From the NCBI RefSeq assembly GCF_030651835.1, contig NZ_JAUSBX010000107.1, positions 3-64,002 on the forward strand: a stretch of 64,000 bases of DNA, read 5' to 3'. Source of the stretch: Methylicorpusculum sp. (GTDB taxonomy: Bacteria > Pseudomonadota > Gammaproteobacteria > Methylococcales > Methylomonadaceae). Below, one piece after another: positions 11 through 46,360 of the stretch. The position numbers and the translations under genes were made by a program. Below the pieces are notes generated by a model that saw nothing but the letters and a program-made list of their open reading frames with translations, did no database searches and was not told the DNA's origin. Position 1 is the first letter of the stretch. Every line of letters starts with the position of its first letter.

Positions 11-117
11 GAAGGTATGGGATGTGTCTATCGAGGACCGCCGTGAACCCCTCCATGGGGGCTTGACGGCAGCAATCCCTGCTGCCGACATCCTCGCTAG
101 CCACACCCCATACCTTC
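11..117 (-). repeat. Structured intergenic repeat with two GGA-loop hairpins (TwoAYGGAY-like core), own outer arms
   Basis: Outer inverted repeat gaaggtatgggatgtgtctatcgagga (11-37) / tcctcgctagccacaccccataccttc (91-117). Minus-strand core hairpins GGCAGC-AGGGAU-UGCUGCC and CCC-AUGGAG-GGG. A degenerate family-1 TIR (tcaaacggggaattactg) lies at 159-176. Confidence 0.8.
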
Positions 118-236
118 ATAAAGTTAACCATTTTTTGAGTATAAAGGGAGTAAAAAGCTCAAACGGGGAATTACTGCAGCCTATCGAGTTATTGCGATGG
201 CTTTAACTCATAGCATTTGGAGGGATGAGCAGATAC

Positions 237-1994
237 TTACAAAGAACGTTTTGATGGATCAAACTCTTCAAATGTCGCATACGTCTGCATGCCGCCTGAC
301 AGATTTTTTACGTCAAAACCGTGCTGCTGCAAAATGCGCGTAGCATTATAGGCTCGTTGCCCGACGCCGCAGACCACCCAAACCTCTCTTTCCCTGGATA
401 ATTCATCAAGCCGCTGCCTTAAAGCATCCAATGGAATATTCACTGCTCCCGGAATATGCTTCTGAGCAAATTCGGCCTCGGTACGTACATCAACAATCTG
501 GGCTTGTTCATAGGGATCTTGCAGGATCAAAGAAAGCCATTGACCAGCTTCATCCTGATCTTCACTGACGTGCGTGTTGCTGTCAAACAATTCCTCCCAT
601 TTTGCCAATGGATGATTGCCGCGCAACTGATTGGCAGCAATCATGCCCGCCAGATTGACCGGGTCTTTGGTTGCTCCGAATTGAGGCGCATAACACAGTT
701 CGGCCTCTTCCAGATCATACACGGTACCGCCCATCTGAATGAATGACGCTATGACATCAATACGTCTGGCTACACCGGATTCACCCAGCGCTTGGGCACC
801 CAGAATCATGCCGTTGCGAGTGTCGTACAACAATTTGATGTGAATGGGTTTGGCACCGGGATAATAGCCGACATGGTTGCCGGGATGCAGATACACTTTT
901 TCAAAATGGGTCATGCCGGCGGCTTTCAGCATTTTTTCGTTAACACCTGTTGTGGCAACAGTAACGCCAAACAGTCCGCATACAGAAGTCCCCTGAACAC
1001 CCCGGTAAGTCATTGGCGGTGTTTTGCCCGACAGCTTAGCCACAATATTAGCAGCCGCGATACGTCCTTGACGGTTGGCAGGTCCCGCCAATGGAAACAG
1101 CTGCCATTGGCCGGTCAGCACATTCTTGACTTCTATGACATCACCCACGGCCCAGATAAAGGGATCGGAGGTCTCCAAAAACTCATTGACGCGAATTCCG
1201 CCCTGCTCACCCAGACTCAATTCTGCCTGAACGGCAAGTGTCGTCTGCGGCTTCACGCCAATGGAAATCATCACGGCATCGGTGGTTATCGACCCACCCT
1301 CTGTCAATGATACTTCAAGACGATCATCGGCATTTCTCTGAAATTTTATAACCTTTGCATTCAAACGCAGATCAATACCCTGCTGAATTAAATAGGTGGT
1401 CATGAATCGGGCCATTTCAAGATCCAGCGTAGGCATGATTTGACCTGATGATTGCAGAACAGTCACCTTGACCCCGCGTTTGACCAAATTCTCGGCAAGC
1501 TCCAGCCCCAGATAACCTGCGCCCATGACCACGGCATGTTTCATATCCGGCAGTTCTGATCTTATTTTACGGCTGTCCGGTATGGTTCTTAACGCATGAA
1601 TGCCGGGCAAATCGATGCCTTCTATCAAAGGCCAAACGGCGCTGGAACCCGTTGATAATACCAACGCATCATAGGGCTCGATTCTATCGACGCCCGTTTT
1701 AAGGTCGCGCACGGTCAAGGTTTTTAAATCCCTGTCAATCGCTAAAACTTCGGTATCCGAACAAACCTGAATATTGAACCGGTTCTTGAACAGCTCAGGC
1801 GTTGCAACCAACAGTTTTTCTTCTTCAACGATCACATCGCCGATAAAGTAAGGCAAACCGCAATTAGCAAATGAAACGTAGGAACCTTTTTCAAACATGA
1901 TGATCTCGTATTCTTCGCACAAGCGCCGAATCCGTGTCGCACAACTGGCGCCGCCAGCAACGCCTCCGACGATCAAAATACGTTTACCGGTCAT
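237..1994 (-). CDS. cdr: CoA-disulfide reductase / NAD(P)H-dependent persulfide reductase with C-terminal rhodanese domain
   Basis: GGVAGG FAD motif, SFANCGLPY redox Cys motif, GAGYLG NAD motif, GD motif, C-terminal rhodanese (DVR...HIPGA...CGVGQRA). Confidence 0.85.
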   Translation of the reverse strand: MTGKRILIVGGVAGGASCATRIRRLCEEYEIIMFEKGSYVSFANCGLPYFIGDVIVEEEKLLVATPELFKNRFNIQVCSDTEVLAIDRDLKTLTVRDLKTGVDRIEPYDALVLSTGSSAVWPLIEGIDLPGIHALRTIPDSRKIRSELPDMKHAVVMGAGYLGLELAENLVKRGVKVTVLQSSGQIMPTLDLEMARFMTTYLIQQGIDLRLNAKVIKFQRNADDRLEVSLTEGGSITTDAVMISIGVKPQTTLAVQAELSLGEQGGIRVNEFLETSDPFIWAVGDVIEVKNVLTGQWQLFPLAGPANRQGRIAAANIVAKLSGKTPPMTYRGVQGTSVCGLFGVTVATTGVNEKMLKAAGMTHFEKVYLHPGNHVGYYPGAKPIHIKLLYDTRNGMILGAQALGESGVARRIDVIASFIQMGGTVYDLEEAELCYAPQFGATKDPVNLAGMIAANQLRGNHPLAKWEELFDSNTHVSEDQDEAGQWLSLILQDPYEQAQIVDVRTEAEFAQKHIPGAVNIPLDALRQRLDELSREREVWVVCGVGQRAYNATRILQQHGFDVKNLSGGMQTYATFEEFDPSKRSL

Positions 1995-2021
1995 GGATCA
2001 GGGTGCCTCGCTTTTGGATAG

Positions 2022-2049
2022 CGACAGACAAGTATCAACTTGTCTGTCG
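2022..2049. other. Perfect 12-bp inverted repeat (hairpin or operator) between the cytochrome c gene and cdr
   Basis: cgacagacaagt-atca-acttgtctgtcg. There is no U-tract on the minus (sense) strand, so its role is uncertain. Confidence 0.5.
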
Positions 2050-2097
2050 AGAGGTGAATGGCAGGGTAAAACCTTCTTTACCCTGCGAGGGGGATAA

Positions 2098-2742
2098 TCA
2101 ATGCATTTGTTGATAATACTGCGCCAGCTCTTTAATTTCATCATCACTGAGTTGCTGGACTATCAACCTCATACGGCTGTAGATATCGTTGTGACGCTCG
2201 CCTTTTTTATAAGCCAACAAGGTATTCGCCGTATAGTCAGCTTGTTGACCGGCCAGTGCAGGAACATCCATCTTTTCGCCTCGACCATTACCACCGTGGC
2301 AGGTAAAACAGGGTGGAATAATCCGCTTGCCGTCGCCCGCCTCAACCAATTGCTGCGCTTTGGCCAATTCTTTATCGCCTTGCTTTGCCGGAGGTGGCGT
2401 CAAGGAACTGAACCAGGCAGCCAAATCGGCGGCGTCTTGCTCGCTCAAACCGCCGGCAATGGATGTCATTAATGTATTGACTCTGTGACCTTTGGCATAA
2501 TCCATTAATTGCTTGTAGGTGTAATTGGCAACTTGCCCAGCCAGTGACGGATACTCTGACAGTGCGCTAACACCGTTTTCGCCATGGCAGCCGGCACAGG
2601 ATTCGGCCAGCTTTTTTCCTTTGGCCAGATCACCTTTTTTGACCAGATTAAGTGTTTCCGGTGTCCAGGCAACCTCGGTCGAAGGGCCTGCATTAGCGAG
2701 CACAGGGGCGAGTAAAGAAATAAACAGAATAATATGTTTCAT
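2098..2742 (-). CDS. Di-heme cytochrome c4/c553-like protein
   Basis: Signal peptide MKHIILFISLLAPVLANA, two CxxCH motifs (CAGCH, CFTCH), P.LAGQ motifs typical of c4. Start placed at ATG 2742, 3 nt after the cbaA stop. Confidence 0.88.
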   Translation of the reverse strand: MKHIILFISLLAPVLANAGPSTEVAWTPETLNLVKKGDLAKGKKLAESCAGCHGENGVSALSEYPSLAGQVANYTYKQLMDYAKGHRVNTLMTSIAGGLSEQDAADLAAWFSSLTPPPAKQGDKELAKAQQLVEAGDGKRIIPPCFTCHGGNGRGEKMDVPALAGQQADYTANTLLAYKKGERHNDIYSRMRLIVQQLSDDEIKELAQYYQQMH

Positions 2743-2744
2743 GA

Positions 2745-4370
2745 TCAATAACCCCAACCGCTTGAACCAAAGGTATCCATAAAGAAAAATTGTAAAATCG
2801 GCACCCCGAAACTGATAAACATCAGTACGGCAATCACCTTGTTCCAAAGTTTAAAGTCATTGAGATATTCGGGTAACGATTCGACCGCATGAATCGGTTC
2901 AGCATATTCGACTTGCTGAACAAACTCGGCAGACGCGGAACTCAACTGAGTTTTGGCCAGATTGTAGATAAACAGACAGGCTGAACCCAACAACACAAAT
3001 CCGCCGAAAATCATGACAAATTCGTAAGGATCCCAGGATAGAGTCAACAGACTGTTATACGCCACGCTGGAAATTCGGCGCGGCTGACCCAACAAGCCCA
3101 GCACATGCCAAGGCGTTGTCATAATGGCCATACCAATAAACCAGGTCCAGAGCTGAATCAGCGCCAGCGAATCCGAAAACAACGGTTTGCGGGTCAAAAT
3201 CGGCCAGAAATAATAAGCAATAGCGAAATACATGATAATGGTTGTTCCACCAAAAATGAGGTGAAAATGGCCGGGAACCCATGCCGTATTATGAATCATC
3301 GCGTTCATTGCATAGCTGGCATTAACCAAACCGCCAAAGCCACCGAATATCAACATCAGTAGCGACAAAATCACAGACAGCGTCATGGGATTTGTCCACG
3401 GCAAAGTACCGATCCAGCCGAACAGGCCTTTTCCACCTCGCAAGCGACCGGCAATTTCCAAAGATGCGATGACGGTAAATCCGGTAATCAGGGTCGGAAA
3501 ACTGACCACAAAGGTACCGAAGGCATGCAGCAATTTCCAGCCGCTGGCTTGCTCAGGATCCATGTATAAATGATGAAAGCCGATAGGCAATCCGAACACC
3601 ACCAGAATAATAAAGGCAACTCGCGCCATTTCATCGCTAAACAGAAATCCCCCGGCTTGTTTGGGCACGAACACATAAAATGCGGTGTAAGCAGGAATCA
3701 ACCAAAAGTAAACAATCGGGTGCAAAGTCCATGCAAATAGCGTTCTAGCCAGACCCGGATCAATGGTATCCATCCAGCCCAAAGCCAACGGTATCAACTG
3801 AAACAAAACTTCCAATGCCACTCCCGCACTGGTCCATAACCATAACAAGGCATTGGCAGTCGTCGCAAACATAGCCAACGGCACCGGTTGATTGGGATTC
3901 GCTTTTTTCCATTGGTAGAACATCACCACCATGATGGCGCACCAAAACCACGACCCCACAACCAGCAATGTCGCTCCGATATAAAAAGAGACGTGGGCCA
4001 GCAGCGGAGGATAGAAGGTGTAAAGAACCGATGCTTTGCCTATCAATAAGGGAATCGCCGCCAGCACTGTGCCGCCTAACGCAATCGAGAATCCAGTCCA
4101 AGCCAGGGGTTTATTCCAGATCGGTATTTTCAAGCTGGTCGATGCAACATAATACCCAAATCCCATAATAAAAAAGGTGGTCAGGACAAAAGCCATCAAC
4201 ACGCCGTGGGTACTCACCGAGGCAAAATACACGGAAGGAGAAGTCAGTGCTTCAATAAATCCGCTACGTTCAAGGACTTGATAAACCCCCATAAAACACG
4301 CCAGTATGAAAGCGCCAAAGGCAACCCATAAGTGGCTCAAAATAAATTTATTTTCTACCGCATCATTCAT
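2745..4370 (-). CDS. cbaA: B-family (ba3-type) cytochrome c oxidase subunit I
   Basis: About 13 TM helices; HGVLM, HPIVYFWLIPAY (CuB His plus cross-linked Tyr), HHLY, GHFHL. Start at 4370 overlaps the cbaB stop (ATGA). Confidence 0.9.
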   Translation of the reverse strand: MNDAVENKFILSHLWVAFGAFILACFMGVYQVLERSGFIEALTSPSVYFASVSTHGVLMAFVLTTFFIMGFGYYVASTSLKIPIWNKPLAWTGFSIALGGTVLAAIPLLIGKASVLYTFYPPLLAHVSFYIGATLLVVGSWFWCAIMVVMFYQWKKANPNQPVPLAMFATTANALLWLWTSAGVALEVLFQLIPLALGWMDTIDPGLARTLFAWTLHPIVYFWLIPAYTAFYVFVPKQAGGFLFSDEMARVAFIILVVFGLPIGFHHLYMDPEQASGWKLLHAFGTFVVSFPTLITGFTVIASLEIAGRLRGGKGLFGWIGTLPWTNPMTLSVILSLLMLIFGGFGGLVNASYAMNAMIHNTAWVPGHFHLIFGGTTIIMYFAIAYYFWPILTRKPLFSDSLALIQLWTWFIGMAIMTTPWHVLGLLGQPRRISSVAYNSLLTLSWDPYEFVMIFGGFVLLGSACLFIYNLAKTQLSSASAEFVQQVEYAEPIHAVESLPEYLNDFKLWNKVIAVLMFISFGVPILQFFFMDTFGSSGWGY

Positions 4371-4894
4371 TTCGCATCTCCGGTAACAGGCGCGTTGGTC
4401 GGTGCCGTCCAGTTTTCCTTGGCGACGACAGAAATATTGCTCCACATATGATCATGACCCAATCCGCAATATTCGTTGCACAAAACAGGGTACTCCCCTG
4501 GTTTTGGAAAAGAGGTTGTAACCTGAGCCACATAGCCCGGCACAATCATTGTGCTCATATTCGTCATAGGGATATGGACGCCGTGCAATACGTCGGTACT
4601 GACCCATCTAAACGTCACTTTGGTTTCCGAAGGCACAGCAATGTGTTTGGGATAAAATGAATAACGGCCAGCCACCATTCTTACCGTGATTGCGCCTTCA
4701 GCATCAACCTTGACGCCCAGATTATCTTCGGCAAATTCCTCGCTCAAATGTAAGCGCGCCGAATCAATCGTTTCAACATGACTGGGCGCATTGATTCCAT
4801 GGATCAATGCATCAACCATAATGATGCTGACAAAAAGCCCCGCCATACCCAGGGCCGTATAAGCCCATTTCCTCTCTAAAGGATCAATATGCAT
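4367..4894 (-). CDS. cbaB: ba3-type oxidase subunit II (CuA)
   Basis: One N-terminal TM helix; DVLHG and CNEYCGLGHDHM CuA ligands. Confidence 0.9.
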   Translation of the reverse strand: MHIDPLERKWAYTALGMAGLFVSIIMVDALIHGINAPSHVETIDSARLHLSEEFAEDNLGVKVDAEGAITVRMVAGRYSFYPKHIAVPSETKVTFRWVSTDVLHGVHIPMTNMSTMIVPGYVAQVTTSFPKPGEYPVLCNEYCGLGHDHMWSNISVVAKENWTAPTNAPVTGDAK

Positions 4895-4903
4895 CTCCGC
4901 CCC

Positions 4904-5056
4904 CTATTGAATGCCGCCGCGCGGTAAAAAAACGCCATAATACAAAAACAGCCAGGCGACAACCATCGTAGCCCCTACTGTCAATAACAGCACCCAGGTG
5001 CCTACCGGCGCGCTTTCGAGAATTCGTTTGCGCTCTTCTTCACTCAGCTGATTCAT
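4904..5056 (-). CDS. cbaD: ba3-type oxidase subunit IIa (50 aa, not in the ORF track)
   Basis: MNQLSEEERKRILESAPVGTWVLLLTVGATMVVAWLFLYYGVFLPRGGIQ: single TM helix with the P.G...W...Y..F..RG pattern, directly upstream of cbaB. Confidence 0.8.
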   Translation of the reverse strand: MNQLSEEERKRILESAPVGTWVLLLTVGATMVVAWLFLYYGVFLPRGGIQ

Positions 5057-5388
5057 GGCCTTCCCCTTGAATGATTAAAAAATAATTGTGAACTTATGGA
5101 TTCGATGATTTGCGTTGATCTGACGAAATTATTATCAAATCGGCAATGGCATGTCTTTTAGCGAGGGGCTTAATTATAGTCATCGCACTCCAAGTATCAT
5201 TCTTCTGCCCTCTAATCCCATGCTTAACCCGGCATTGGCCAATTGCTAAAGCCATATAGACCATCAACAGGCCCGTGAATTGAGGTAGCGTATTTGAAGT
5301 GCGAAAAGTATACACACAGTTTTTATTGTAATTATGGGTGCATCCTAATGTACTGGACCTAAATTTGTAAAGCCGGACAGTAAAACCG

Positions 5389-5602
5389 CAGCAATTCTCA
5401 GTTTGATCTTTTCGGCGTCATTTTGGGCTGGGGAAAGCCTTTTGAGGAACGCCGTAAACCCTTCCATGGAGGCTTGACAGCAGCATCTGACCGCCAAGGA
5501 CGGTGGAAATGCAGATATTGTCCGGAATAAAAATCTGCCCTGCTGCCGACATCCTCAAAAAGCTTCCCCAAGCCCTTTTTCTCTTCAAATTGAGAATTGC
5601 TG
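5389..5602 (-). mobile_element. MITE-like repeat family 1 (18-bp TIRs) with GGA-hairpin core, interrupted by a 51-nt insert
   Basis: TIRs cagcaattctcagtttga (5389-5406) / tcaaattgagaattgctg (5585-5602). Core matches the copies at 34111 and 39542. Insert at 5488-5538. Confidence 0.8.
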
Positions 5603-5637
5603 GTAAAACCGTCTTGAAATGAATTATTTTCTTTGAA

Positions 5638-5784
5638 ACTACTCGCCCGCTTTGAATTAAGGGTGTAGGTGCTTGATTTCAAAGGACGCGTAAATGCGTC
5701 CCTGTAGCTCTCTGCAACATCCCTGTTGCAGAAGCATTTTCAATCAACCACCTACAACCACTAAAATTGGAGGGGGTGAGCAGA
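5638..5784 (-). repeat. MITE-like repeat family 2 with GGA-hairpin core
   Basis: Near-identical to the reverse complement of 46214-46360. Minus-strand hairpins CUGCAAC-AGGGAU-GUUGCAG and UAC-AGGGAC-GCA. Confidence 0.8.
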
Positions 5785-5812
5785 AACAAAAATTGAATGC
5801 TTTCTCTCACTA

Positions 5813-6613
5813 TTAATCAACTGGCTTAAACTCTTGCGCAAATTCGGCGAATTCGTTTTTCCAGGAATTTTTGTTATATCCCCAATCACCTTCTTCCAAA
5901 AGCTTCTCCGCTTGCGCCAATTCGGCTTTAATCTGGGTTAGATTTGCTTCGTCGCCCTCGGCCCAAAGCGCTCGGGCATAAAACAGGTGATTAAGCGGAT
6001 GATCTGGATGTTCCCTGGCGGCTTTTTCCAACAGCTCCAACGCCTTGTCGATGTCTCCGATACCATTGGGCCAAGACGGCGCCTTGAGATAAAGCATTCC
6101 CAATAGTCTTAGCGGACCGCCACTATCAATGTCCGGATTCAAAGCCACCGCTTGCTTCATCTCGTCTTCCAGACGGCCAAGGTTCCTCATGGCCAGGGTA
6201 ATATGTTCGCGAACCGAAAGACCGAGATTGGCCGCTAAATAGTAATGCACCGCTCCATCACCGCGTCCTCCTCGTTGCAAAGCGGCTTCGGCAAAGCCAA
6301 CCCCTTCGGCAGCCAATTTCTCGCGCTTGTTTTGGTCCACTTCGCGTTCGGCCAAGAGCAGAGATAGGCGGCTTCCCAGCGAGGTACCAAGCACCGCAGG
6401 ATCTTGAGTATTGCGAAGAACGGTCAGTGCGCAAGCTAAGGTATGAGTATCCGTCAAGGGGCCCAACTGGTTTTGCTCTTCGACCAAAGACACAGCAGAG
6501 AGATTAGGACAATCATCAGGCAATGCTATCTGCACCTGGTCACGCGGCAAACCGGTGCAGCCGGTCAGGAATATCAACATTAAATGCGGAAAAATCCGGA
6601 TGTTATACACCAT
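5813..6613 (-). CDS. bstC: Sterol-binding lipoprotein, BstC-like (TRAP T-component/TPR-like fold)
   Basis: Lipobox LTGC, helical TPR-like repeats, last gene of an MMPL/SBP/lipoprotein trio in a sterol cluster. Confidence 0.72.
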   Translation of the reverse strand: MVYNIRIFPHLMLIFLTGCTGLPRDQVQIALPDDCPNLSAVSLVEEQNQLGPLTDTHTLACALTVLRNTQDPAVLGTSLGSRLSLLLAEREVDQNKREKLAAEGVGFAEAALQRGGRGDGAVHYYLAANLGLSVREHITLAMRNLGRLEDEMKQAVALNPDIDSGGPLRLLGMLYLKAPSWPNGIGDIDKALELLEKAAREHPDHPLNHLFYARALWAEGDEANLTQIKAELAQAEKLLEEGDWGYNKNSWKNEFAEFAQEFKPVD

Positions 6614-6614
6614 C

Positions 6615-7454
6615 TTATTGCCCGGTCGCCCACAGTTTGATCATGGGTTCAAACACTGCAGAGTCGACAGTAGCAAAGGCTTCCACCCCGAATAGCTCAC
6701 ATAGCTTTTTGCCCTCGCTATCGGAACACATGCCTTCCAATGCCTTGCCAAAACGGACGCGCTCGTCCGCAGTCGTGGTGGCGCTGTTGGCGACAACGCC
6801 CATCAGTGGAATTTCCTCGGAGGTAAAGACAGCGTCAAGAGTCGTATCCATTTGGAGCGAAGACAGTCCGCCAAATTGCTGCTCGTTCAAGATGACCGCA
6901 TCCAGCTCTCCTTTATTTAAAGAGCGCAGGGCACGGATTGCCTGATTAGACTTTTGTAAAACAAAAAAAGTGTCCGGATCGTATTTTCCGGCAAAAACGA
7001 TTTTGCCGATGAAGGAAGATTCTTCCAAGACCGTGCCGCCCAGCGTTTTACCTTTAAGCTCATCCAGGTTCTTGAACTTGTCTTTCTGGACCATTACCCG
7101 ATAACGTTCATGGGTAAGGCCTTTAATTTTGGGCTGAACCACAGGCACCAGATTGTGTTGATTGCGCAATTCCAGAAATAGCCCCAAAGAGGTGATGGCG
7201 AATTTGGGTTTATTGTCGGCCATCTGTTTTCTGCATTCGTCCGATTTAGCCGTAAATAGACTGTTAAAGCTGTTCTCCTGCCATTGCCCTACACGTTCAA
7301 CCACGCGCAACATCGAAGTCATTGCACCGTTGGCGTCTTTTTCATTGACCGATCCGCCGGGATAGCACACCACTATCATTTCCGGATTGGGTGCGGCATT
7401 AGTAACAAAGGAAGCCGCCAAGCCGGAAAGAATAAAGAGACAGATTTTTTGCAT
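6615..7454 (-). CDS. bstB: Periplasmic sterol-binding protein, BstB-like (phosphonate-binding SBP fold)
   Basis: Signal peptide, PhnD-like features (DELKGKTL, AIRAL...GELDA), position between the RND/MMPL gene and the lipoprotein gene. Confidence 0.72.
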   Translation of the reverse strand: MQKICLFILSGLAASFVTNAAPNPEMIVVCYPGGSVNEKDANGAMTSMLRVVERVGQWQENSFNSLFTAKSDECRKQMADNKPKFAITSLGLFLELRNQHNLVPVVQPKIKGLTHERYRVMVQKDKFKNLDELKGKTLGGTVLEESSFIGKIVFAGKYDPDTFFVLQKSNQAIRALRSLNKGELDAVILNEQQFGGLSSLQMDTTLDAVFTSEEIPLMGVVANSATTTADERVRFGKALEGMCSDSEGKKLCELFGVEAFATVDSAVFEPMIKLWATGQ

Positions 7455-10168: not shown

Positions 10169-10187
10169 AGAAAGAAAACTGTTTAAA

Positions 10188-11294: not shown

Positions 11295-11330
11295 TTTCGG
11301 AACTCGGTTATGTGGTTAAGAGGGGGCTAT

Positions 11331-31559: not shown

Positions 31560-31570
31560 GAAAACTTTAT

Positions 31571-34110: not shown

Positions 34111-34275
34111 CAGCAATTCCCAGTTTGAACTTAAAATATGGCTTTAAGGAGTGGCGTAAGCCTTACAAGGGACGCCGTAGACCCATTCATGGGGGCTTGA
34201 CGGGCAGCATCCCTGCTGCAGACATCCTCGCAAAGCTTAAGCCACCCCTTTTTTTCGTCAAACTGGGAATTGCCG
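34111..34275 (-). mobile_element. MITE-like repeat family 1
   Basis: TIRs cagcaattcccagtttga / tcaaactgggaattgccg; core gacgccgtagacccattcatgggggcttgacgggcagcatccctgctgcagacatcc. Confidence 0.82.
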
Positions 34276-37179: not shown

Positions 37180-38138
37180 GGTTTTGATACCACTCCCCAG
37201 GGATAGCGCCCTACACCGATAGATTTAGTCACTTTGTGATTATCCAGATCAATAATGGAGACATCATTGCTGAGGCCATTCGTTGTATAAAGTCTTTTTT
37301 GATCCGGTGAAAACGCCAGATTCCATACTCGTTGTCCCACCAACAAGTATTTTTCAACTTCAAAGGTTTTTGCATTGATCACGGCAACCCGGTTGGCCGG
37401 TCCCATGGCAACATAAGCCCAACGCTGATCTTTATCTATAGCAACACCTACGGGCTGAATAGTGTCATCGGTAACCCCTTGAACGGATAGTTTAATTTTT
37501 TTTATGATTTGCCGGGTTTTGGCATCAAGAACAGTGACTGTTCCCGCCATTTCGGATGTCACCCATAAAAACTGACTGTCTGAGGTAAAACTCAGCGCCC
37601 TGGGTCTTGGATCCACCAACGTGTTATCACTGATTGTCAGTGTTTTAGCATCTATCCAATGCAGCATATTGGTTGCCTCAGTCGCACTGACAACCCACTG
37701 GCCATCAGGGCTTGCAGCAATTCCTTCAGGTTCCACGCCAACCGGTATTTGTTGAAGCGCTTGTTTTGTCGCGATGTCGATCACAGTGACGGTATTGTCG
37801 TCTTCATTTGAAGCGAAAAGCCGTTTACCATCGGGCGTGAGTGCAAAAGTTTCCGGGTCTTCACCGGAAGGAAGCCTGCCAATCTCAAGCAGCGTTTCTG
37901 AGTCAATTACTTTGATGGTATTGTCGTCACTGGTTGCTACAAACAGATATTTATAATCATGGCTGATTGCAATACCCCTTGGCCGCTGACCTACAGGAGC
38001 GGTTTTAAGCAGAGTACCTGCGATGGGGTCGACAACAGCAATTGCATTATCTTTTTCCAAAGTCACATATACCGTCTCGGCATGGGCGGCCCAACTCAAC
38101 GCGGCAAGTAGACCCGCGCTTATCATCCAAACATTCAT
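37176..38138 (-). CDS. YVTN beta-propeller protein, PQQ-dependent catabolism-associated (PedA2-like)
   Basis: Signal peptide; repeats VGQRPRG, GEDPE, VGVEPEG, VGQRVW, VGRYPWG. Confidence 0.82.
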   Translation of the reverse strand: MNVWMISAGLLAALSWAAHAETVYVTLEKDNAIAVVDPIAGTLLKTAPVGQRPRGIAISHDYKYLFVATSDDNTIKVIDSETLLEIGRLPSGEDPETFALTPDGKRLFASNEDDNTVTVIDIATKQALQQIPVGVEPEGIAASPDGQWVVSATEATNMLHWIDAKTLTISDNTLVDPRPRALSFTSDSQFLWVTSEMAGTVTVLDAKTRQIIKKIKLSVQGVTDDTIQPVGVAIDKDQRWAYVAMGPANRVAVINAKTFEVEKYLLVGQRVWNLAFSPDQKRLYTTNGLSNDVSIIDLDNHKVTKSIGVGRYPWGVVSKP

Positions 38139-38148
38139 TAATGTAGCC

Positions 38149-39312
38149 TCATTTACAAAGTGATTCAGGTTGATCGAAACCCAAGGTATCCAATTCTGTT
38201 TTAGGGTGTAAAAAGCCCTCTATCGGAGCAACAGCGACCAGTGAGCGTGGTGCAGCCAGTAAAACAGGCTGCCGCATCTGGCCATCCCAAACCCGAAAGG
38301 ATAGCGGTTTGCCTTTATAGCCCTGCAGAGCAAAGTCTTTACTCAGCATATAGGCTTTGATATCAGCCAAATTGACGGAACCGGTCCGCGTTGCCGCTTC
38401 ACCTATGGCTCTTACGGCAATGTAAGCGCCATAATCGGCTTCTTCCATCCAGCGGCCTATTTTATCTTTGAAGCGGTTTTGCATTTGTATCGCGCCCCAT
38501 TGCTCATGCGTTTTGTGCCATGCAGTTGCAATAAGACCCTGTGTTCCGATTACCGGCCTGGGAATCCAGGTGCGATAATCCAAATACTCGCCGAATGCAC
38601 CTTGTTCATCGGCAACAATCAAAACATCATAATCCCCGGCTTGCGTAAATGTTGGAATATCAGACTGTTCAGTTTTACGGGCATCGAAGGTATGTTCCCA
38701 TTTTTTTTCAGCTGTTATCTTGATCCCAAAACGTTTTGCCGAACGTTTAATTGCTGCCGCATAAAGTTCGTCTTCTTTTGCAGGTCCGACGACCAGGAAC
38801 CACTTTGACCAACGCTTTTTCATCATGTATTGCGCAAGAGCATCTGCTCGCATTGCGCGACTGGGGAGAATAAACAAAACTTGCGGCAAGCATTTTGCTC
38901 TTAAAGCGTCGTCCGAAGTATTTGCATCAAAAATGAGCATCTGATCCGGCTTAGCCAGTTCACTGATTTTTTCTAATTCAGCAGCAGGTAAATTAGAAAT
39001 GACAAATGCGTATTTATTGAGAACTTTATCTTTAAATAGCTGATAAGTGTCGCCCTGAACAGGAACGGCTATCTCATCTATTGCATAGACTTGTCCTGTG
39101 AATCGGCCGGTTGTATTGTTATCGGCCACACCGAGTTGCGCACCTGGAAAGCCTTTATCTTTAATAAAGGGATCAAGATTGGACAGTGACTGCGGAGGGG
39201 CAAGATCTTGACTGAAATAGGCAATTTTGATCTCTTTTTCATTTGCCGCACCGGCTAAACCAACCCAACATAAATAAAGAAAAAGTACTCTCAAAATAAA
39301 AGAATAAGCCAT
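38149..39312 (-). CDS. ABC substrate-binding protein (PedA1/LutA-like)
   Basis: GAQLGVADNNTTGRF, PSRAMRADALAQY, YKGKPLSFRVWDGQMRQP, LDTLGFD. Confidence 0.8.
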   Translation of the reverse strand: MAYSFILRVLFLYLCWVGLAGAANEKEIKIAYFSQDLAPPQSLSNLDPFIKDKGFPGAQLGVADNNTTGRFTGQVYAIDEIAVPVQGDTYQLFKDKVLNKYAFVISNLPAAELEKISELAKPDQMLIFDANTSDDALRAKCLPQVLFILPSRAMRADALAQYMMKKRWSKWFLVVGPAKEDELYAAAIKRSAKRFGIKITAEKKWEHTFDARKTEQSDIPTFTQAGDYDVLIVADEQGAFGEYLDYRTWIPRPVIGTQGLIATAWHKTHEQWGAIQMQNRFKDKIGRWMEEADYGAYIAVRAIGEAATRTGSVNLADIKAYMLSKDFALQGYKGKPLSFRVWDGQMRQPVLLAAPRSLVAVAPIEGFLHPKTELDTLGFDQPESLCK

Positions 39313-39541
39313 GATTTATTCCTGGAATTCTGTCAAAAATAAGGGGTGGTTAAGGCGAATTTTTGTAAGCTTACCCAACAACCTGGGCGTGTAAAAACTT
39401 AACTCAGACTCGTTTCAGTATGCTTGAAAAAATCGGAGGATAATAATACTTTGCTTAAGCATTGTAACGTAATCGACTAAAAACAAGTTTATTTCCCGAA
39501 AAGCAGTTAACCAGATTAAAGCAAGATAACAGGCAATTGGG

Positions 39542-39703
39542 CAGCAATTCCCAGTTTGATATTTTCAGCGTCACTTTGAACAGGGAAAAGCCTTTCGGGG
39601 AACGCCGTAAACCCCTCTTTGGGGGCTTGACGACAGCATCCCTGTTGCCGACATCATCGAAAAGCTTCTCCCAACCCTTTTTTCTTCAAATTGAGAATTG
39701 CTG
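39542..39703 (-). mobile_element. MITE-like repeat family 1
   Basis: TIRs cagcaattcccagtttga / tcaaattgagaattgctg; core as at 5389 and 34111. Confidence 0.82.
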
Positions 39704-39943
39704 GGCAATCGGATGTCTTGACTTTTCTGCTACCAAAACATAAAGCCTGCTTTCGTGAGTTTATTTAAAACCAATATTTCAATGCAATAACCAACAAAAG
39801 CCAATTATATTACGCTACGGCTGTTAAATCAGCCCTTATCCATAAAGCTTTGTGATTGAAAAGAAATAATTTTATTTTGACCGTTTCACTATTTCTTTGA
39901 TTCTACGATAATTAACAATAAAGAAAATTTAAGGAATACCCTA

Positions 39944-40339
39944 ATGCCGTCAACCCCGAGTAAAGATGTTGATGACCCAATACCCTATGCCGACGATCTG
40001 GTTCATTCCAATAGAAGAAAATCAGTGCGTTATGTCCGCAATGACGTTCAAACCACACTCTTGATCCGAAATTTTATGGGCTTAAAAAGCTCAATGGACG
40101 TCAAGCTTTTCGATATAAGTAGCCGAGGTGTAAACATTGCATCGGCAAAAAGGCTAAAAATCGGAAAACCCGTCTGCCTGATTTTTAGATTCGAGGACGG
40201 TATGGAATTTAAAATTAATGCATTTATTAGAAATTGCTGCATCAAATCAGAATACCAATACGGAATCCAGTTCGAAAAACAAGAAAATAATTTGGCTGAT
40301 CATTTACTTAAGACTCAAGTAGATCTAGTATTCAAATAG
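39944..40339 (+). CDS. PilZ-domain protein
   Basis: NRRKSVR (RxxxR) and DISSRG (DxSxxG) motifs, YGIQF. Confidence 0.8.
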   Translation: MPSTPSKDVDDPIPYADDLVHSNRRKSVRYVRNDVQTTLLIRNFMGLKSSMDVKLFDISSRGVNIASAKRLKIGKPVCLIFRFEDGMEFKINAFIRNCCIKSEYQYGIQFEKQENNLADHLLKTQVDLVFK

Positions 40340-40385
40340 ATAAAATTAATTTCATCATCTTTTACGATCCAACCAGGAAAAAGTC

Positions 40386-40718
40386 ATGGAAACCTCCGCT
40401 ATTAACTCATCCCAATCAGCCCCCCCATTGACAGCCTCCAAAGCAAACTTTCAGACAACACCGACGGCAATGGAAAAAGAGGACAGGCCAATCCGGACTG
40501 AATCTGAAAATAAAGTCAAACTGTCTGATGATGCGGTCAAATTATCCAGGCAGTTTCAAAAAAACGAAACCGAACAGACAAAAACTCAAATTTCTAACAA
40601 CGAGGAAGCCCAGGCTACAATCAATGACATTAAAATTGCCATGCAGAATGATCCGGGCCGCTCTTTTTCAGCTCAAAGCAACTTTACCTCAAATATGGTA
40701 AAAAGCCTGACCGGTTAA
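40386..40718 (+). CDS. Hypothetical protein with FlgM-like and flagellin-C-terminus-like segments
   Basis: Low-complexity N-terminus, KVKLSDDAVKLS, C-terminal AQSNFTSNMVKSLTG. Confidence 0.55.
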   Translation: METSAINSSQSAPPLTASKANFQTTPTAMEKEDRPIRTESENKVKLSDDAVKLSRQFQKNETEQTKTQISNNEEAQATINDIKIAMQNDPGRSFSAQSNFTSNMVKSLTG

Positions 40719-40731
40719 TCAGTCAACTGCT

Positions 40732-41550
40732 ATGCATCTCAAGTCAATTTATGTCTATCCGGTTAAATCACTAAGCGGTTTTAGCGTCAAATCCTGGCCG
40801 GTTAACGAAAAAGGATTGTTGCACGACAGAAGATGGATGATAGTTGATACGGAAAACCGTTTTATTACGCAACGGCAATTTCCAAAAATGTCATTAATCA
40901 GTACGTCATTATCCAAAGAAGGGTTGCATCTTTCGGCGGCCTCCATGCCACCCATCACCGTCCCTTTTGAATCCGATCCTACGGCTACTTTCAATGTTGA
41001 AATCTGGAATGACAGTTGCTCAGCCAAGCCCGCATCTGAAACAGCCAACAACTGGCTAAGCACGTTTTTAGAAACTGATTGCCGTTTAGTCTATCAACCC
41101 GAGGATGCAGTTCGTGTTGTTGATCCAGACTACGGAAAACCAAAAGACAAAATATACTTTTCAGACGGATTTCCTTTTTTAATCATTTCAGAAGCTTCAC
41201 TTGCAGCCTTAAATCAGGAAATGAACGAAACCTTTTCAATGACTCGCTTTAGGCCGAATCTTGTAGTAACTGATTGCGAGCCTTATGCAGAAGACACTTG
41301 GCGAACCATTCGAATTGGTGCAATTGACTTTCGGCTACCTAAACCCTGTTCTCGCTGTTCCATCACTACGATTGATCCATCAACCGGACAACAAGGTAAA
41401 GAACCGCTAGCCACACTAAATCGAACCAGAAAATGGAATAAACAAGTCTTTTTTGGTCAAAATGCACTTCATGATAAGACCGGCGAATTGCACATTGATG
41501 ACGCGTTAATTGTCCTGACTCAAGGACCAAAACAACCCCCGCTCATATAA
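40732..41550 (+). CDS. MOSC domain protein (YcbX-like)
   Basis: YPVKSLSG, DRRWM, FSDGFPFL, RFRPNLVV, KPCSRC. Confidence 0.9.
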   Translation: MHLKSIYVYPVKSLSGFSVKSWPVNEKGLLHDRRWMIVDTENRFITQRQFPKMSLISTSLSKEGLHLSAASMPPITVPFESDPTATFNVEIWNDSCSAKPASETANNWLSTFLETDCRLVYQPEDAVRVVDPDYGKPKDKIYFSDGFPFLIISEASLAALNQEMNETFSMTRFRPNLVVTDCEPYAEDTWRTIRIGAIDFRLPKPCSRCSITTIDPSTGQQGKEPLATLNRTRKWNKQVFFGQNALHDKTGELHIDDALIVLTQGPKQPPLI

Positions 41551-41654
41551 ATCAGCTCGCTAGTCAAGGCTTACAAACCTTCTTAATACGGGCTTCAAGC
41601 TATTCCGTTGCGCCAATCCTGCAAATCCTTTTATCAAGCCATCTCACCCTCCTA

Positions 41655-43487
41655 ATGCAAAACATTCTGCTCATCCTCGGCGTCCCCTTACTAATTTATG
41701 GCTTTTGGCTCAGTAAAGACTTTACAGGTATTGCCGCAGGTATTTCGATTTTTTTATTTGGCATGCTGGCCCTGGAACAAGGGTTTAACGCATTTACCGG
41801 CGGCACACTGGAACGCATTCTAAGAAAAACCACCCGGACAAATTGGCGGAGCCTATGGTTCGGGATTCTTGCAACGTCGTTAATGCAATCCAGTTCGTTG
41901 GTCTCTATCATCACCATTTCATTTATCAGTGCCGGACTGCTTGAACTCGCTGCGGGTATAGGCGTTATCTTTGGTGCAAATCTGGGCACGTCTACAGGAG
42001 CCTGGCTGATTGCAGGCTTTGGACTTAAAGTAAATCTATCTGAATACGCCCTGCCGCTGTTAGTCTTCGGCATTCTGTTTATTTTTCAAGGCCATAAAAA
42101 AATAAAAGGTCTGGGTTATATTCTGGCAGGCCTGGGCTTTTTATTCCTTGGCATTCACTATATGAAAGAAAGTTTTGAAGCCATCAAGGAGACCCTTGAT
42201 CTGGTTGAATACGCCATACCTGGAATTCGTGGCTTACTGATTTATACCCTGATGGGCTTTGCAGCGACCATCATCATGCAGTCCAGTCACGCGACGATGG
42301 TTTTGATTATCACCGCACTAGCCGCTCACCAAATAACGTATGAAAATGCCTTGGCCTTGGCGATAGGATCCAATGTTGGAACAACGGTAACCGCAATATT
42401 GGGATCGCTGGGCGCCAATGTGGAAGGAAAACGGCTTGCGGCGGCCCATTTTTTATTTAATATGGTTACCGGTTTACTTGCGCTTGCTCTGATCAAGTAC
42501 TTTGAGGTCTGCGTTGATTGGGTTGCACAGATTTTAACCATTGCAGATGATAACTACACGCTTAAGCTGGCTATTTTTCATAGTTTATTTAATCTGCTTG
42601 GCATCATGGTGTTGTTTCCGTTTATCGACAAATTGGTTAAAGTGCTGGAGAAAACCATTAAACCGGCCAAATCCAATATTTTTAAGCCCAAATATTTAAA
42701 CAACTCCGCCGCTGGATTTCCCGAAACTTTTGTCGAATCGGTCAGACTGGAAACCATCCATCTTTATGAAAACGCCATCCACATTGTGCTCAAAACGTTT
42801 GGCTTACACCGGCGGGACATACTCGACAATGACTTGCTTTGGGCTGCATTGCAAAAAGAAAGCACCCGCTCTTATTACGATATCGATGGGGGCTATGAAA
42901 AACGTATCAAAGGTATCTTCAGCGCAATTATTGAATTTATAAGTCAAGCCACGTTCAGCCGTGAACTGGAACAATCATCCAAACTCTATTGGCTCAGGAA
43001 TTCGGGCCGTCATATTGTCGAAGCGATCAAAGATACCAAACACCTACAAAAAAACTGGATTCGTTACGGTCGCTCACCATCAACAGAAGCTCGGCATGAA
43101 TATCAAAAAATAGCGTTTCAGATTGCGTTAATGATCAGGGAAATCGAACAATTCAGGCAGAAAATAGATCAAAATGAACTGCCTCTGCTGTCGCTGGATT
43201 CATTAAAATCAAAAATAGAAGACGATGACCTGCAAGTGACCCGCCAAATAGAAAAGCTTATCAGAGAGAAAAAAATCACCTCTCAGACCGGCTCCTCTCT
43301 GATCAATGATAGCGCTTACATGTACAGCATTAAGTCAAATCTTGTAAAAGCTGCGGAGACTTTATTTCTGCATAAAAGCCCACAAATGTTCCGCCCCGAA
43401 CTCAAATTGACTTTGGATGACTCGGAAATAAAACAGGTAATAGAAAAAATCAACCCCGCTTACGGACAAAATTCCGATATCAACTGA
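41655..43487 (+). CDS. Na/Pi cotransporter family protein (NptA/YjbB-like)
   Basis: Duplicated QSSS/QSSH motifs, GANLGT and GSNVGT, C-terminal PhoU-like helices. Confidence 0.88.
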   Translation: MQNILLILGVPLLIYGFWLSKDFTGIAAGISIFLFGMLALEQGFNAFTGGTLERILRKTTRTNWRSLWFGILATSLMQSSSLVSIITISFISAGLLELAAGIGVIFGANLGTSTGAWLIAGFGLKVNLSEYALPLLVFGILFIFQGHKKIKGLGYILAGLGFLFLGIHYMKESFEAIKETLDLVEYAIPGIRGLLIYTLMGFAATIIMQSSHATMVLIITALAAHQITYENALALAIGSNVGTTVTAILGSLGANVEGKRLAAAHFLFNMVTGLLALALIKYFEVCVDWVAQILTIADDNYTLKLAIFHSLFNLLGIMVLFPFIDKLVKVLEKTIKPAKSNIFKPKYLNNSAAGFPETFVESVRLETIHLYENAIHIVLKTFGLHRRDILDNDLLWAALQKESTRSYYDIDGGYEKRIKGIFSAIIEFISQATFSRELEQSSKLYWLRNSGRHIVEAIKDTKHLQKNWIRYGRSPSTEARHEYQKIAFQIALMIREIEQFRQKIDQNELPLLSLDSLKSKIEDDDLQVTRQIEKLIREKKITSQTGSSLINDSAYMYSIKSNLVKAAETLFLHKSPQMFRPELKLTLDDSEIKQVIEKINPAYGQNSDIN

Positions 43488-43530
43488 TCCAATAGCCTTT
43501 CTTGCCCCGACTAAGATAGAGTCTTTAAAG

Positions 43531-43794
43531 ATGAACATAATCAAATTAGTAAGCAAGTTACAGCGTTTTTTCCGGCCCGAGCTAAAAAAAAATAAAGCTC
43601 ACGCCAAAGAGTTGCAAAACATATTGGATAAACTAAAAAAGAAACAACAGGCACTTGAAAATGAGATCCTGCTGAACCAGGATCCTGAACTGATAAAGCT
43701 TTTTCAGACAGAACTTGAAATCATCCGAATGCAACACCAAAAAGGAATCGCCGCATTGCATGAAATTTATCAAAACATTAAAAGCCTGAGCTGA
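43531..43794 (+). CDS. Small coiled-coil hypothetical protein
   Basis: 87-aa helical ORF directly after the Na/Pi transporter. Confidence 0.55.
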   Translation: MNIIKLVSKLQRFFRPELKKNKAHAKELQNILDKLKKKQQALENEILLNQDPELIKLFQTELEIIRMQHQKGIAALHEIYQNIKSLS

Positions 43795-43819
43795 TAATCT
43801 GCATAAAATAGCAATATTT

Positions 43820-44004
43820 TAGGAGCGAGCATGAAACAACTGCTTCAAAAACTGGAAGGGGTTCGGTGGCTCGATTGACAGGTGTCGGCGTCAGGGATTG
43901 ACGCAGTCAAGCCTACACGGACGTATTCACGGCGTCCTGTCAGGCGAGTGACCGAACCTCACAAACAGTCCTGCTTGTAGAGGTTATTTTGTGTTTAGTT
44001 CTTA
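43820..44004 (+). repeat. MITE-like repeat family 3 with GGA-hairpin core
   Basis: Close match to 45992-46178. Hairpins GCGUC-AGGGAU-UGACGC and UAC-ACGGAC-GUA; imperfect terminal inverted arms. Confidence 0.82.
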
Positions 44005-44263
44005 GAATCAGAATGATCAATTAAGATATGGCAAGCATCTTGATTGACTTTTAACTCAGGCTCTTCAAAATGCAAGTTCTGTCGGCCTTTAGCAAATTCA
44101 CGGCCTTTAACGCTTGTCTTTACGCAGTAGGCTTATTACAGTAGTATTTTGCCAACCTTAAGAATGTTGCTACGTTCTAAAAACCGGACCTGTGCGGCTT
44201 TAAGCTGACTCATTTCACAACTCAACCGCGTTAAAATTTAACGCATTCAATGTAATAAACCCC

Positions 44264-45925
44264 ATGTCAACAAACGAAATTCAAACGGCTTCAAATTTTA
44301 TCCGTCACATCATCAACAATGATCTGAAACAAAACAAGAACAATGGCCGGGTAGCCACCCGGTTTCCTCCCGAACCCAACGGTTATCTGCATATTGGTCA
44401 TGCCAAATCGATTTGCCTGAATTTCGGGACAGCGGCTGAGTATCAGGGTACCTGCAACCTGCGTTTTGATGACACGAACCCTGAAAAAGAAAGCATCGAG
44501 TATATGGAATCCATAGAAAGAGATGTCAAATGGCTGGGTTTTGAATGGCGCGAATTAAGACACGCTTCGGATTATTTCGAACAACTTTACCAGTTTGCAG
44601 TCGATCTGATTAAACAGGGTAAAGCCTACGTTGACAGCTTGTCGCCCGAAGAAATAAGACAATATCGGGGTACGCTTACTGAACCCGGCAAAGAGAGCCC
44701 GGATAGAAGCCGCAGCATCGAAGAAAACTTACGACTGTTCGAAGGGATGCGAAATGGCGATTTTGCTGATGGTCAGTATGTGCTGCGGGCAAAAATCGAC
44801 ATGGCTTCACCGAACATCAACATGCGCGATCCTGCCATTTACCGGATCCGCCGCGCACACCACCATCGAACCGGCGATCAGTGGTGTATTTATCCGATGT
44901 ATGATTACACCCACTGTATTTCCGATGCACTGGAGAACATCACTCATTCATTGTGTACACTGGAATTTGAAGACCATCGCCCTCTGTATGACTGGGTCCT
45001 GGACCAACTCGATGTGCCCTGCCATCCACAACAAATTGAATTTGCGCGCCTGCAACTGGAATACAGTATTGTCAGCAAACGCAAACTCAATCAACTGGTT
45101 ATGGAAAAACATGTCGATGGTTGGGATGATCCACGCATGCCCACCCTTGCGGGCCTGAGACGAGCCGGTGTTACCCCCAATGCCATTCGCGATTTTTGCG
45201 AACGTATCGGTATCACCAAAAAAGACTCCTGGATTGAAATGGCTGTACTTGAAAACAGCATTCGTGAAGATCTGAACGAAAACTCACCCAGAGCCATGGC
45301 GGTCTTGAAACCACTTAGAATCGTTATCGAGAATTATCCTGACGATCAGGTCGAGTCGCTTGAGATCAGCAACCATCCGCAACACCCGGAAATGGGCTCA
45401 CGCAATATTCAGTTTTCAAAAACCGTACTGATTGAACAAGATGATTTTGCCGAAGTGCCGCCATCAGGATTCAAGCGTTTGATCAAGGGTGGCGAAGTGC
45501 GTTTACGCGGGGCTTATGTCATTAAATGCAATGAAATCATCAAAAATGAACACGGTAACATCGTTGAACTCCGTTGCACCTACGATCCTGATACGCTTGG
45601 CAAAAATCCTGAAGGCCGAAAGGTAAAAGGCGTTATTCATTGGGTATCCGAACAGCACTCGGTACCGGCTGAATTACGTTTGTACGATAGGCTGTTCAAT
45701 CATCCCAACCCGGATACATTAAGCAACTTCCTGGATGCGCTGAATCCACATTCACTTGAAGTACTAAACGATTGTCGCGTGGAATACAGCCTGGCATCAT
45801 CGGGACCCGGCAGCCGTTTTCAGTTTGAACGCATGGGTTATTTTTGCCGCGACCTTCATGATACCGACAAAGGCGTCATGGTGTTTAACCGGACGGTGAC
45901 TCTCAGAGATACCTGGGGAAAATAG
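44264..45925 (+). CDS. glnS: Glutaminyl-tRNA synthetase
   Basis: [15 protein letters not shown] (HIGH), [22 protein letters not shown]. Confidence 0.97.
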
Positions 45926-45991
45926 CTTCTGACGGGGTTACGGCTATGTCTTATCAACCAGCCGGGTTGATGTCTGTAGCCCTAACCCTGA

Positions 45992-46178
45992 CTAAGGAAC
46001 GGGCATGAAACAACTTATTCAAAGACTGTAAGGGGTTCGGAGGCTCGATTGACAGGTGTCGGCGTCAGGGATTGCCGCCGTCAAGTCTACACGGACGCAT
46101 TCACGGCGTCCCGTCAGGCGAGTCACCGAACCCCACAAACAGTTCTGCTTGTGGAAGTTATTTCATGCTTATTCCTAA
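45992..46178 (+). repeat. MITE-like repeat family 3
   Basis: Direct-repeat partner of 43820-44004; arms gcatgaaacaac / gttatttcatgc. Confidence 0.82.
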
Positions 46179-46213
46179 GCCAATCTGATCAAAAACATCC
46201 AGTTTCCTGAGTA

Positions 46214-46360
46214 TCTGTTCACCCCTTCCGATTTAATGGGGTGTAGGTAATTGATTGAAAAGGCTTCTGCAACAGGGATGTTGCAGAGAGCTTCATGGAC
46301 GAATTCACGCGTCCTTTGAAATCAATCACCTACATCCAAAATTCAACGCGGGTGAGTAGT
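46214..46360 (+). repeat. MITE-like repeat family 2
   Basis: Reverse-complement partner of 5638-5784; loops AGGGAU and AUGGAC. Confidence 0.82.

Follow-up and report, generated by a model that had tools for sequence, protein, structure and literature searches.

The RNA motif TwoAYGGAY was listed as a probable RNA of unknown role by Weinberg et al, 2010 (PMC2864571), and Gardner and Eldai put it forward as a CsrA binder (PMC4333381). A 2026 preprint reported tens to ~200 repeat-associated copies per Pseudomonas genome and an extended form in Pseudomonadota, and discussed a possible multivalent Csr/Rsm sponge as well as a mobile-like expansion whose mechanism was left unresolved (bioRxiv 10.64898/2026.09.22.753630). 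Bacterial transposable elements of the miniature inverted-repeat type (MITEs) that fold as long RNA hairpins, namely Correia/NEMIS, ERIC and YPAL/RU-2, have also been described (Delihas 2008, PMC2229807). Here, we analyzed a 64,000-nt stretch of the genome of the methanotroph Methylicorpusculum sp. (contig NZ_JAUSBX010000107.1; the whole stretch is called the window below), in which eight elements share one structured core. These elements are very probably MITEs that carry a tip of the TwoAYGGAY type. The overall explanation that we favor, with some reserve, is that non-autonomous elements of several unrelated families are palindromes tipped by one ~70-nt module, whose RNA would act as a decoy for CsrA. 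The idea of a CsrA-binding module, which had been raised in an initial annotation of the window, is already in print for other bacteria; a literature search found nothing on such elements in methanotrophs.

The core common to the eight window elements is ~63–71 nt long and forms a three-way junction of a basal stem and two hairpins. It is described here on the strand showing GGA, which is the minus strand for five window elements and the plus strand for those starting at 43820, 45992 and 46214. On that strand, a short closing helix is followed by YGU, a 7-bp hairpin 1 with an AGGGAU loop, a linker, hairpin 2, GU, and the other side of the closing helix. The loop of hairpin 1 has the form C-ANGGAU-G, and the linker reads (G)UCAA or AGA in the window copies, with UCRA as its general form. 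Hairpin 2 rests on a GCC/GGC base; it has a 3-bp stem with a C-ANGGAN-G loop, and five conserved nucleotides, UUYAC, bulge out from it. A covariance model (R1) made from an alignment of 70 distinct copies in this genome found exactly eight elements in the window, with scores of 62.8–85.6 bits and no other match at E ≤ 1, so that all eight elements of the initial annotation are present where it had placed them. The loop sequences also agreed: loop 1 is AGGGAU in seven copies and is split by a 51-nt insert in the copy at 5389–5602, and loop 2 is AUGGAG, AUGGAA, AGGGAC, AUGGAC or ACGGAC, with GGA lost in the copies starting at 34111 (AUGAAU) and 39542 (AAAGAG). Two of its descriptions had to be changed. 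The elements fall into four families in the window, not three: E (11–117), A (starting at 5389, 34111 and 39542), B (5638 and 46214) and C (43820 and 45992). The closing stem, given as G..GUC/GACGC, is a covarying helix of 5–9 bp or more (GAGGA/UCCUC, AAAGG/CCUUU, ACAGG/CCUGU) that continues into the arms.

The stem covariation claimed for the elements is real. Among the 70 distinct copies from this genome, 90.1% of the cells were paired, compared with 37–48% in slid controls, in which the pairing partners were shifted by 1–3 columns, and two-sided changes occurred in 18 of the 22 pairs. For 54 distinct cores from ~25 other gammaproteobacterial genomes, 96.6% of the cells were paired versus 38–48% in the slid controls, and 19 of the 22 pairs had changed in a compensatory way, with single positions showing as many as five pair types. 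In these genomes the GCC/GGC base of hairpin 2 covaried as GCG/CGC and GCU/AGC, and the loop-closing C-G pairs were near-invariant (53/54 and 54/54 sequences). The 54-core alignment was fitted to R1, which favors the proposed structure; despite this, given how large the effect is and how the slid controls compare, the structure is in little doubt. The unpaired letters C-A-N-G-G-A-U-G, A-GC, C-A-N-G-G-A-N-G, UU-Y-AC and GCGU were near-invariant as well. Two other pairings were considered and rejected. Pairing of the 3′ strand of family A hairpin 1 with ACGGCG, a potential switch that appeared in the minimum free energy fold, was discarded since, across genomes, the tail stays constant but the stem of hairpin 1 does not, and pairing of GUCAA with UUUAC gave way to the covarying GCC/GGC base.

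The core extends well beyond this genome. In a class-wide sample of 251 genomes from 239 genera, R1 matched 57 genomes in 56 genera, as a rule over the full length and with 60–85 bits. Sixteen of 30 relatives carried the core in 1 to at least 150 copies, with none in the others, and the 13 positive genomes in a phylum sample of 301 all belonged to the same class as this genome. The arms around the core were lineage-specific in the 56 other genera. A ~105-bp short form of family C lacking the outer arms, and short forms with no recognizable transposon ends, occur in other genera. A core shared by 56 genera, with near-invariant unpaired letters and compensatory stems, requires purifying selection on the structure. 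The claim of a conserved structured core on unrelated mobile elements is supported. Among the matches in other gammaproteobacteria we also observed a six-copy tandem array of the core with a 227-nt period (G558:C1:94435-95642) and divergent doublets ~210–250 nt apart (G496:C11:1433612/1433843 and 788596/788843; G526:C1:1779062/1779275), as reported for TwoAYGGAY in Pseudomonas.

Within this genome, the core is a high-copy repeat. An nhmmer profile made from the window cores was searched against the 4.6-Mb, 159-contig assembly and gave 366 copies at E ≤ 1, 311 at E < 1e-3 and 249 at E < 1e-6, with the copies lying between genes. The repeat breaks the assembly, since 54 of the 318 contig ends are within 200 nt of a match. 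Based on their arms, the 216 matches that were near full length and away from contig ends were divided into A1 (59 copies), B (55), A2 (33), D (22), C (9), A3 (8), E (4) and F (2), plus singletons, so that the genome holds at least seven arm families. Family edges are sharp, with ~90% identity inside and random sequence past the ends. All families are palindromic from the ends through to the tip, which is not what internal deletion of an insertion sequence (IS) produces. The core occurs in either orientation within the outer arms, and some copies are chimeric, with the left arm from one family and the right arm from another. Neighboring pairs of copies were divergent in 8 cases, convergent in 8 and on the same strand in 11, with no excess of divergent doublets. 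One family D element (G000:C97:33285-33340) has lost its entire interior between short direct repeats, and one family C element (G000:C67:56780-56930) has a deletion between the two CGGCGUC repeats of the core; both illustrate loss of the tip through slippage.

The elements are true MITEs, as seen from the inverted-repeat ends and fixed-length duplications of families A and B and the short duplication of family C. Family A ends in CAGCAATTCYCARTTTGA (17–18 bp) with perfect 9-bp target duplications at many loci, family B ends in GTAWCTRCTCRCCC (14 bp) with 8-bp duplications, and family C has a 3-bp TAR duplication on its flanks. An intact 1441-bp IS with family A ends was found at G000:C109:1-1441; it contains a 457-aa open reading frame (ORF) with a DDE_Tnp_1 domain (E = 1.2e-6), an internal TGTATAAT promoter-like box, and CACGGAAGC located 5 nt upstream of the likely ATG. 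Fourteen additional end fragments are 100% identical to it and lie mostly at contig ends, indicating that the IS was recently active and is collapsed in the assembly. By its ends and domain, it is likely the autonomous partner of family A. There was no core within this IS, and hence the interior of the family A MITEs is not derived from it. A search of the genome found no partner transposon for families B–E, where the orphan ends were internally deleted copies. The 8-bp and 3-bp duplications of families B and C point to other transposases than that of family A, and with duplications of 9, 8 and 3 bp at least three transposition systems move elements with the same tip.

Recent movement is also evident at the window itself. 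Two congeneric genomes, with flanks that are 91–93% identical, both have empty sites in place of the copies starting at 43820, 45992 and 46214, so these copies are recent and not conserved at the locus. Reciprocally, both congeners carry a family A2-type element at ~44127 of the window that is absent from this genome. At the site matching ~45930–46400, the congeners have a short remnant, GGAUGWCGGCAGC-AUGAAA-GCUGCCGUCACC, which resembles a solitary, decayed hairpin 1 and suggests that this site was used repeatedly. The 51-nt insert marks a subfamily of its own: 19 full copies were read, located at different sites with their own 9-bp duplications and with the insert always at the same position, and the insert has ~30 near-identical copies in the genome. 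It forms two small hairpins, one of which has UCCGGA in its loop, and GGA is therefore present on both strands.

In the window, the family E element at 11–117 (minus strand; core 29–100; R1 85.6 bits) has the loops AGGGAU and AUGGAG and is clipped by the contig end. Family A is represented by three copies on the minus strand. The A1 MITE at 5389–5602 (core 5440–5561; 77.8 bits) belongs to the insert-bearing subfamily; its terminal inverted repeats read CAGCAATTCTCA... and ...GAGAATTGCTG, its 9-bp target-site duplication GTAAAACCG was read directly at 5380–5388 on the left and 5603–5611 on the right, and the 51-nt insert splits loop 1 at 5487–5538. The A2 MITE at 34111–34275 (core 34163–34234; 74.7 bits) and the A1 MITE at 39542–39703 (core 39593–39663; 79.0 bits), both with a decayed loop 2, have the 9-bp duplications GCTAAAGGT / GCTCAAGGT and GGCAATTGG / GGCAATCGG, respectively. 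The two family B MITEs are located at 5638–5784 on the minus strand (core 5677–5744; loops AGGGAU and AGGGAC; 64.3 bits), which reaches ~5635–5787 once the inverted repeats are counted, and at 46214–46360 on the plus strand (core 46254–46321; loops AGGGAU and AUGGAC; 73.0 bits). Both family C elements are on the plus strand. The one at 43820–44004 (core 43873–43944; loops AGGGAU(U) and ACGGAC; 74.6 bits) has a 3-bp duplication (TAG), with glnS beginning 260 nt downstream, and the one at 45992–46178 (core 46047–46118; 62.8 bits) lies 3′ of the same gene. The gene at 44264–45925, which is bordered by three elements, is taken to be that of glutaminyl-tRNA synthetase (glnS) from its size and conservation; it is ~80% identical to counterparts in Methylotuvimicrobium, Methylobacter, Crenothrix and Methyloglobulus, by which the organism belongs with the type I methanotrophs (Methylococcales).

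We next compare the core with the described RNA families. At gathering level, Rfam matched only two tRNAs in the window and nothing on the elements, and the weak matches to nadA, rncO and microRNA families were attributed to chance. The likeness to TwoAYGGAY (RF01731, gathering cut-off 43 bits) pointed out by the initial annotation is nevertheless borne out, since the RF01731 model aligns part for part to a family D copy: basal stem, CAUGGAUG hairpin, AAG linker, second CAUGGAUG hairpin, and UUUACG..CGG stretch. This alignment scored 26.4 bits in a small search, and genome-wide the scores did not exceed 20.3 bits, all below the cut-off. Of the checks proposed in that annotation, the search with the RF01731 covariance model stayed under its threshold across the genome, and a de novo model (R1) recovered all eight window elements. 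The top RF01731 match in the genome (G000:C143:4087-4156, 20.3 bits) is a two-hairpin element with the loops CAUGGAUG and CAGGGAUG and different stems, and it may be another family. In another genome, the same core type reached 44.0 bits with RF01731 at one locus (L117), just past the cut-off. Conversely, among ten true RF01731 loci R1 had a full-length match at one, which was found by both models.

The two structures have in common a pair of consecutive hairpins on one basal stem that is often long, loops approaching the CAYGGAUG type, an AAG linker and, 3′ of hairpin 2, a GUUUACG..CGG stretch, as well as a multi-copy, patchy, mobile-like occurrence and a proposed role in binding CsrA/Rsm. 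They differ in that hairpin 2 of the core is reduced to 3 bp plus the GCC/GGC base, with UUYAC left as a bulge, and that loop 1 is mostly AGGGAU, with R instead of Y at position 2. Both loops are AUGGAU in family D; most families have AYGGAN for loop 2, and families A, B, C and E have AGGGAU for loop 1. Across genomes, position 2 of loop 1 is G, U or A. The core is also much more common in the class (57/251 genomes) than RF01731, which passes its cut-off in 8 of 250 genomes, and it is carried within MITEs that have defined ends, duplications and a partner IS, without the excess of divergent doublets. From these comparisons, the core would be a compact sister form of TwoAYGGAY, with intermediates, and under the curated Rfam cut-off the copies in this genome fall outside the family. 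A second Rfam family, Yersinia sRNA 224 (Ysr224, RF02770), matches the reverse strand of the core with 20–41 bits, including window positions 43879–43972 and 46053–46199 and the loci L103 and L120. Its consensus is the reverse complement of the core, including GACGCCGUAAAUAC-UCCAUGUAGGC and the GCGCCAUCCCUGGCGC hairpin. It is, however, annotated on the UCC strand and built from Yersinia, and all matches here are far from its 70-bit cut-off. Ysr224 thus appears to describe the reverse strand of the TwoAYGGAY-like core, and its strand or identity may merit review.

Other known systems resemble the elements in part. Like Correia/NEMIS, ERIC and YPAL/RU-2, they are 100–200 bp long, with inverted-repeat ends, target duplications, locations between genes, a long stem-loop and high copy number, but here one structured tip is common to families with different ends and with 9-, 8- or 3-bp duplications, in many genera. 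REP/REPIN-RAYT systems are similarly palindromic, intergenic and high-copy, with selection on a hairpin. The family consensus sequences here show no GTAG or CGTC tag, however; the ends and fixed duplications point to DDE transposases, and the module is a 70-nt unit with two asymmetric hairpins. The regulatory RNAs CsrB/CsrC and RsmX/Y/Z share with the module GGA in hairpin loops of the form bound by CsrA/RsmE and two sites at a spacing that a dimer could bridge. They are encoded by one or a few regulated genes, whereas the module has two putative sites per unit in hundreds of dispersed mobile copies and has no GacA/UvrY box near its copies.

Hexaloops of the form ANGGAN closed by C-G are the form bound by CsrA/RsmE, and structural work on RsmE-hcnA reportedly gave the site form (A/U)CANGGANG(U/A). 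Both loops of the module read C-ANGGAN-G and would provide two CsrA-type sites per module, and the genome has one csrA gene, in agreement with the initial annotation of the ANGGA loops as candidate CsrA sites. The CsrA consensus obtained by systematic evolution of ligands by exponential enrichment (SELEX), RUACARGGAUGU, has an invariant ACA and an invariant GGA and places the GGA in a hairpin loop (PMC4347634). Hairpin 2 is CUACARGGAUGUA in several lineages, and hairpin 1 of family B is CAACAGGGAUGUUG. The two GGAs are ~23 nt apart. Such a spacing is within the range bridged by a CsrA dimer.

The two strands of the elements differ in predicted RNA folding. Of 216 copies, 208 had the GGA strand as the more stable one; it averaged −51.5 kcal/mol compared with −42.1 kcal/mol for the opposite strand. 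When the core was replaced by a tetraloop, the arms alone still favored the GGA strand in 8/8 families, and the same held for 26 of 30 elements taken from other genomes. G-U outnumbered A-C (121 versus 70 in this genome, 14 versus 4 across genomes); ungapped counts of the two in the arms were unusable owing to bulges, and folding energies were used there. This predicted asymmetry fits selection on a transcript of the GGA strand.

Taken together, these data show elements that are spread by transposases acting in trans, family A probably through the DDE_Tnp_1 IS with identical ends and 9-bp duplications, and individual copies that then decay neutrally, in either orientation to genes. The module would be kept at the level of element lineages because GGA-strand RNA may fold into two CsrA/RsmE sites, and one CsrA dimer could clamp both loops. 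Transcribed copies would then jointly serve as CsrA decoys and not as locus-specific switches. Whether the protein partner of the module is CsrA, as the loop sequences suggest, we consider evenly poised.

Several observations weigh against such a decoy on the GGA strand. CsrA was found in 215 of 250 class genomes (86%), and 5 of 56 core-positive genomes lacked a csrA match, most of these being incomplete assemblies; with csrA this widespread, its co-occurrence with the core is uninformative either way. The strand asymmetry would also be expected of a single-stranded DNA hairpin because G-T wobbles are tolerated, and the independent units within the genome are families and not copies, so that founders limit the number of independent observations. 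Of 58 loose matches to a GacA/UvrY box (TGTAAG-N6-CTTACA), only one, a poor one, was located within 400 nt upstream of a copy. Simple scans for promoters and terminators found nothing inside the elements and no promoter-like site adjoining the copies, where the terminator scan was blind to the hairpin and U-run of family A owing to the complex tip. That family has a run of 5–7 T after its G+C-rich long hairpin on the strand opposite GGA (window 5560–5590, 34240–34258 and 39670–39690), and family A elements could thus be one-way intrinsic terminators for transcripts on that strand, which is also the strand of the Ysr224 annotation. Finally, the subfamily with a split loop 1 has still transposed ~19–30 times, and an intact loop 1 is therefore dispensable for spread.

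The initial annotation went further and viewed the elements as plug-in CsrA-binding modules spread into untranslated regions (UTRs); spelled out, these would be selected docking sites in 5′ and 3′ UTRs, each insertion rewiring the adjacent gene. The fit of the loops to the CsrA consensus and the intergenic location of the copies would agree with this, and in the window all four copies between co-directional genes are sense. Genome-wide, however, copies between co-directional genes were sense in 66 and antisense in 79 cases, and stricter sets with only long ORFs and short gaps gave 50 versus 61, 43 versus 49 and 24 versus 30; the four sense copies in the window are a local accident. The share of copies retaining both GGAs was 57% for the sense and 54% for the antisense orientation. 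As divergence estimated from copies found with the core profile is biased by detection, it was re-estimated on 50 family A1 copies found by their ends alone, where the GGA positions had diverged by 0.063, compared with a median of 0.060 and a mean of 0.105 for the arms. With no orientation bias and neutral decay, and with window copies missing from congeners at otherwise well-conserved flanks, a role as selected UTR switches is not supported, and we consider it quite improbable. The copies behave as transposon passengers and not as tuned gene switches, and most single copies are probably free of host selection. The decay of GGA at the rate of the arms, the lack of a sense bias and the spread of the split-loop subfamily place any selection on element lineages or a few source copies, not on most insertions.

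Three further explanations dispense with a CsrA decoy. The tip might act at the DNA level, being recognized as single-stranded DNA or a cruciform by some conserved protein (for instance a nuclease of the HUH/RAYT-like kind, a nucleoid protein or a replication factor), with the likeness to CsrA sites coincidental. The whole-length palindromes, the strand asymmetry, the core in either orientation within the arms, the short forms lacking transposon ends and the absence of an evident promoter would all suit this. However, the ends and fixed-length duplications of families A, B and C are typical of DDE transposition of double-stranded DNA, the family A transposon itself has no core, and the near-invariant C-ANGGAN-G in both loops is the exact CsrA/RsmE site, which makes a DNA-level role fairly unlikely. 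It is very unlikely that the opposite strand, with the UCC loops AUCCCU and AUCCAU, is the functional one, as a terminator-ended sRNA or an anti-GGA/anti-Shine-Dalgarno decoy. The reverse-strand RF02770 matches and the U6 that follows the long hairpin of family A speak for it, but those scores are far under the cut-off, the U-run is confined to family A, and the strand is ~9 kcal/mol less stable, winning in only 8 of 216 copies, with the arms of other-genome elements mostly favoring GGA as well. Finally, the core could have no function and be shared through recent common descent or recombination among MITE families in one genome, as the chimeric copies and the neutral decay might suggest. This is hardly credible given a core of 60–89 bits in 56 other genera, with lineage-specific arms, near-invariant unpaired letters and compensatory stems.

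Returning to the reading that we favor, of MITE-borne modules whose transcripts would jointly act as CsrA decoys, it is possible that the shared tip arose from a fold-back next to a transposon end, or that titrating CsrA gave the elements an advantage. In its strongest form, the tip would be an element-level adaptation, a high-avidity CsrA clamp captured or kept repeatedly by unrelated transposons, with CsrA titration aiding their spread; this we regard as unlikely. One possible route would be the relief of CsrA repression of the transposases, and the CACGGAAGC that precedes the start of the family A transposase is of the CANGGANG form.

The most useful results are the MITE mechanics, defined along with a partner transposon, and the wide occurrence of a compact core that Rfam largely misses. 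TwoAYGGAY has been without a function since 2010, and its swings in copy number have recently been called mobile-like while lacking a mechanism. For one branch, this genome gives a concrete mechanism, with the tip inside MITEs, an intact partner transposon for one family and insertion polymorphism in congeners, and mobility thereby becomes testable in the laboratory. As the compact core is present in ~23% of the sampled gammaproteobacterial genera and the Rfam model mostly misses it, annotation could be improved. With >300 near-consensus dual CsrA-type sites, this one genome lends itself well to testing the decoy idea. Should the copies be inert passengers, their main value is practical: many contig breaks in this assembly (54/318 contig ends) are explained by them, and they are not to be taken for regulatory RNAs. 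If the element-level clamp were true, the >300 copies would give the genome a distributed CsrA sponge that evolves by copy number, and mobility would be coupled to global post-transcriptional control in methanotrophs and in about a quarter of gammaproteobacterial genera.

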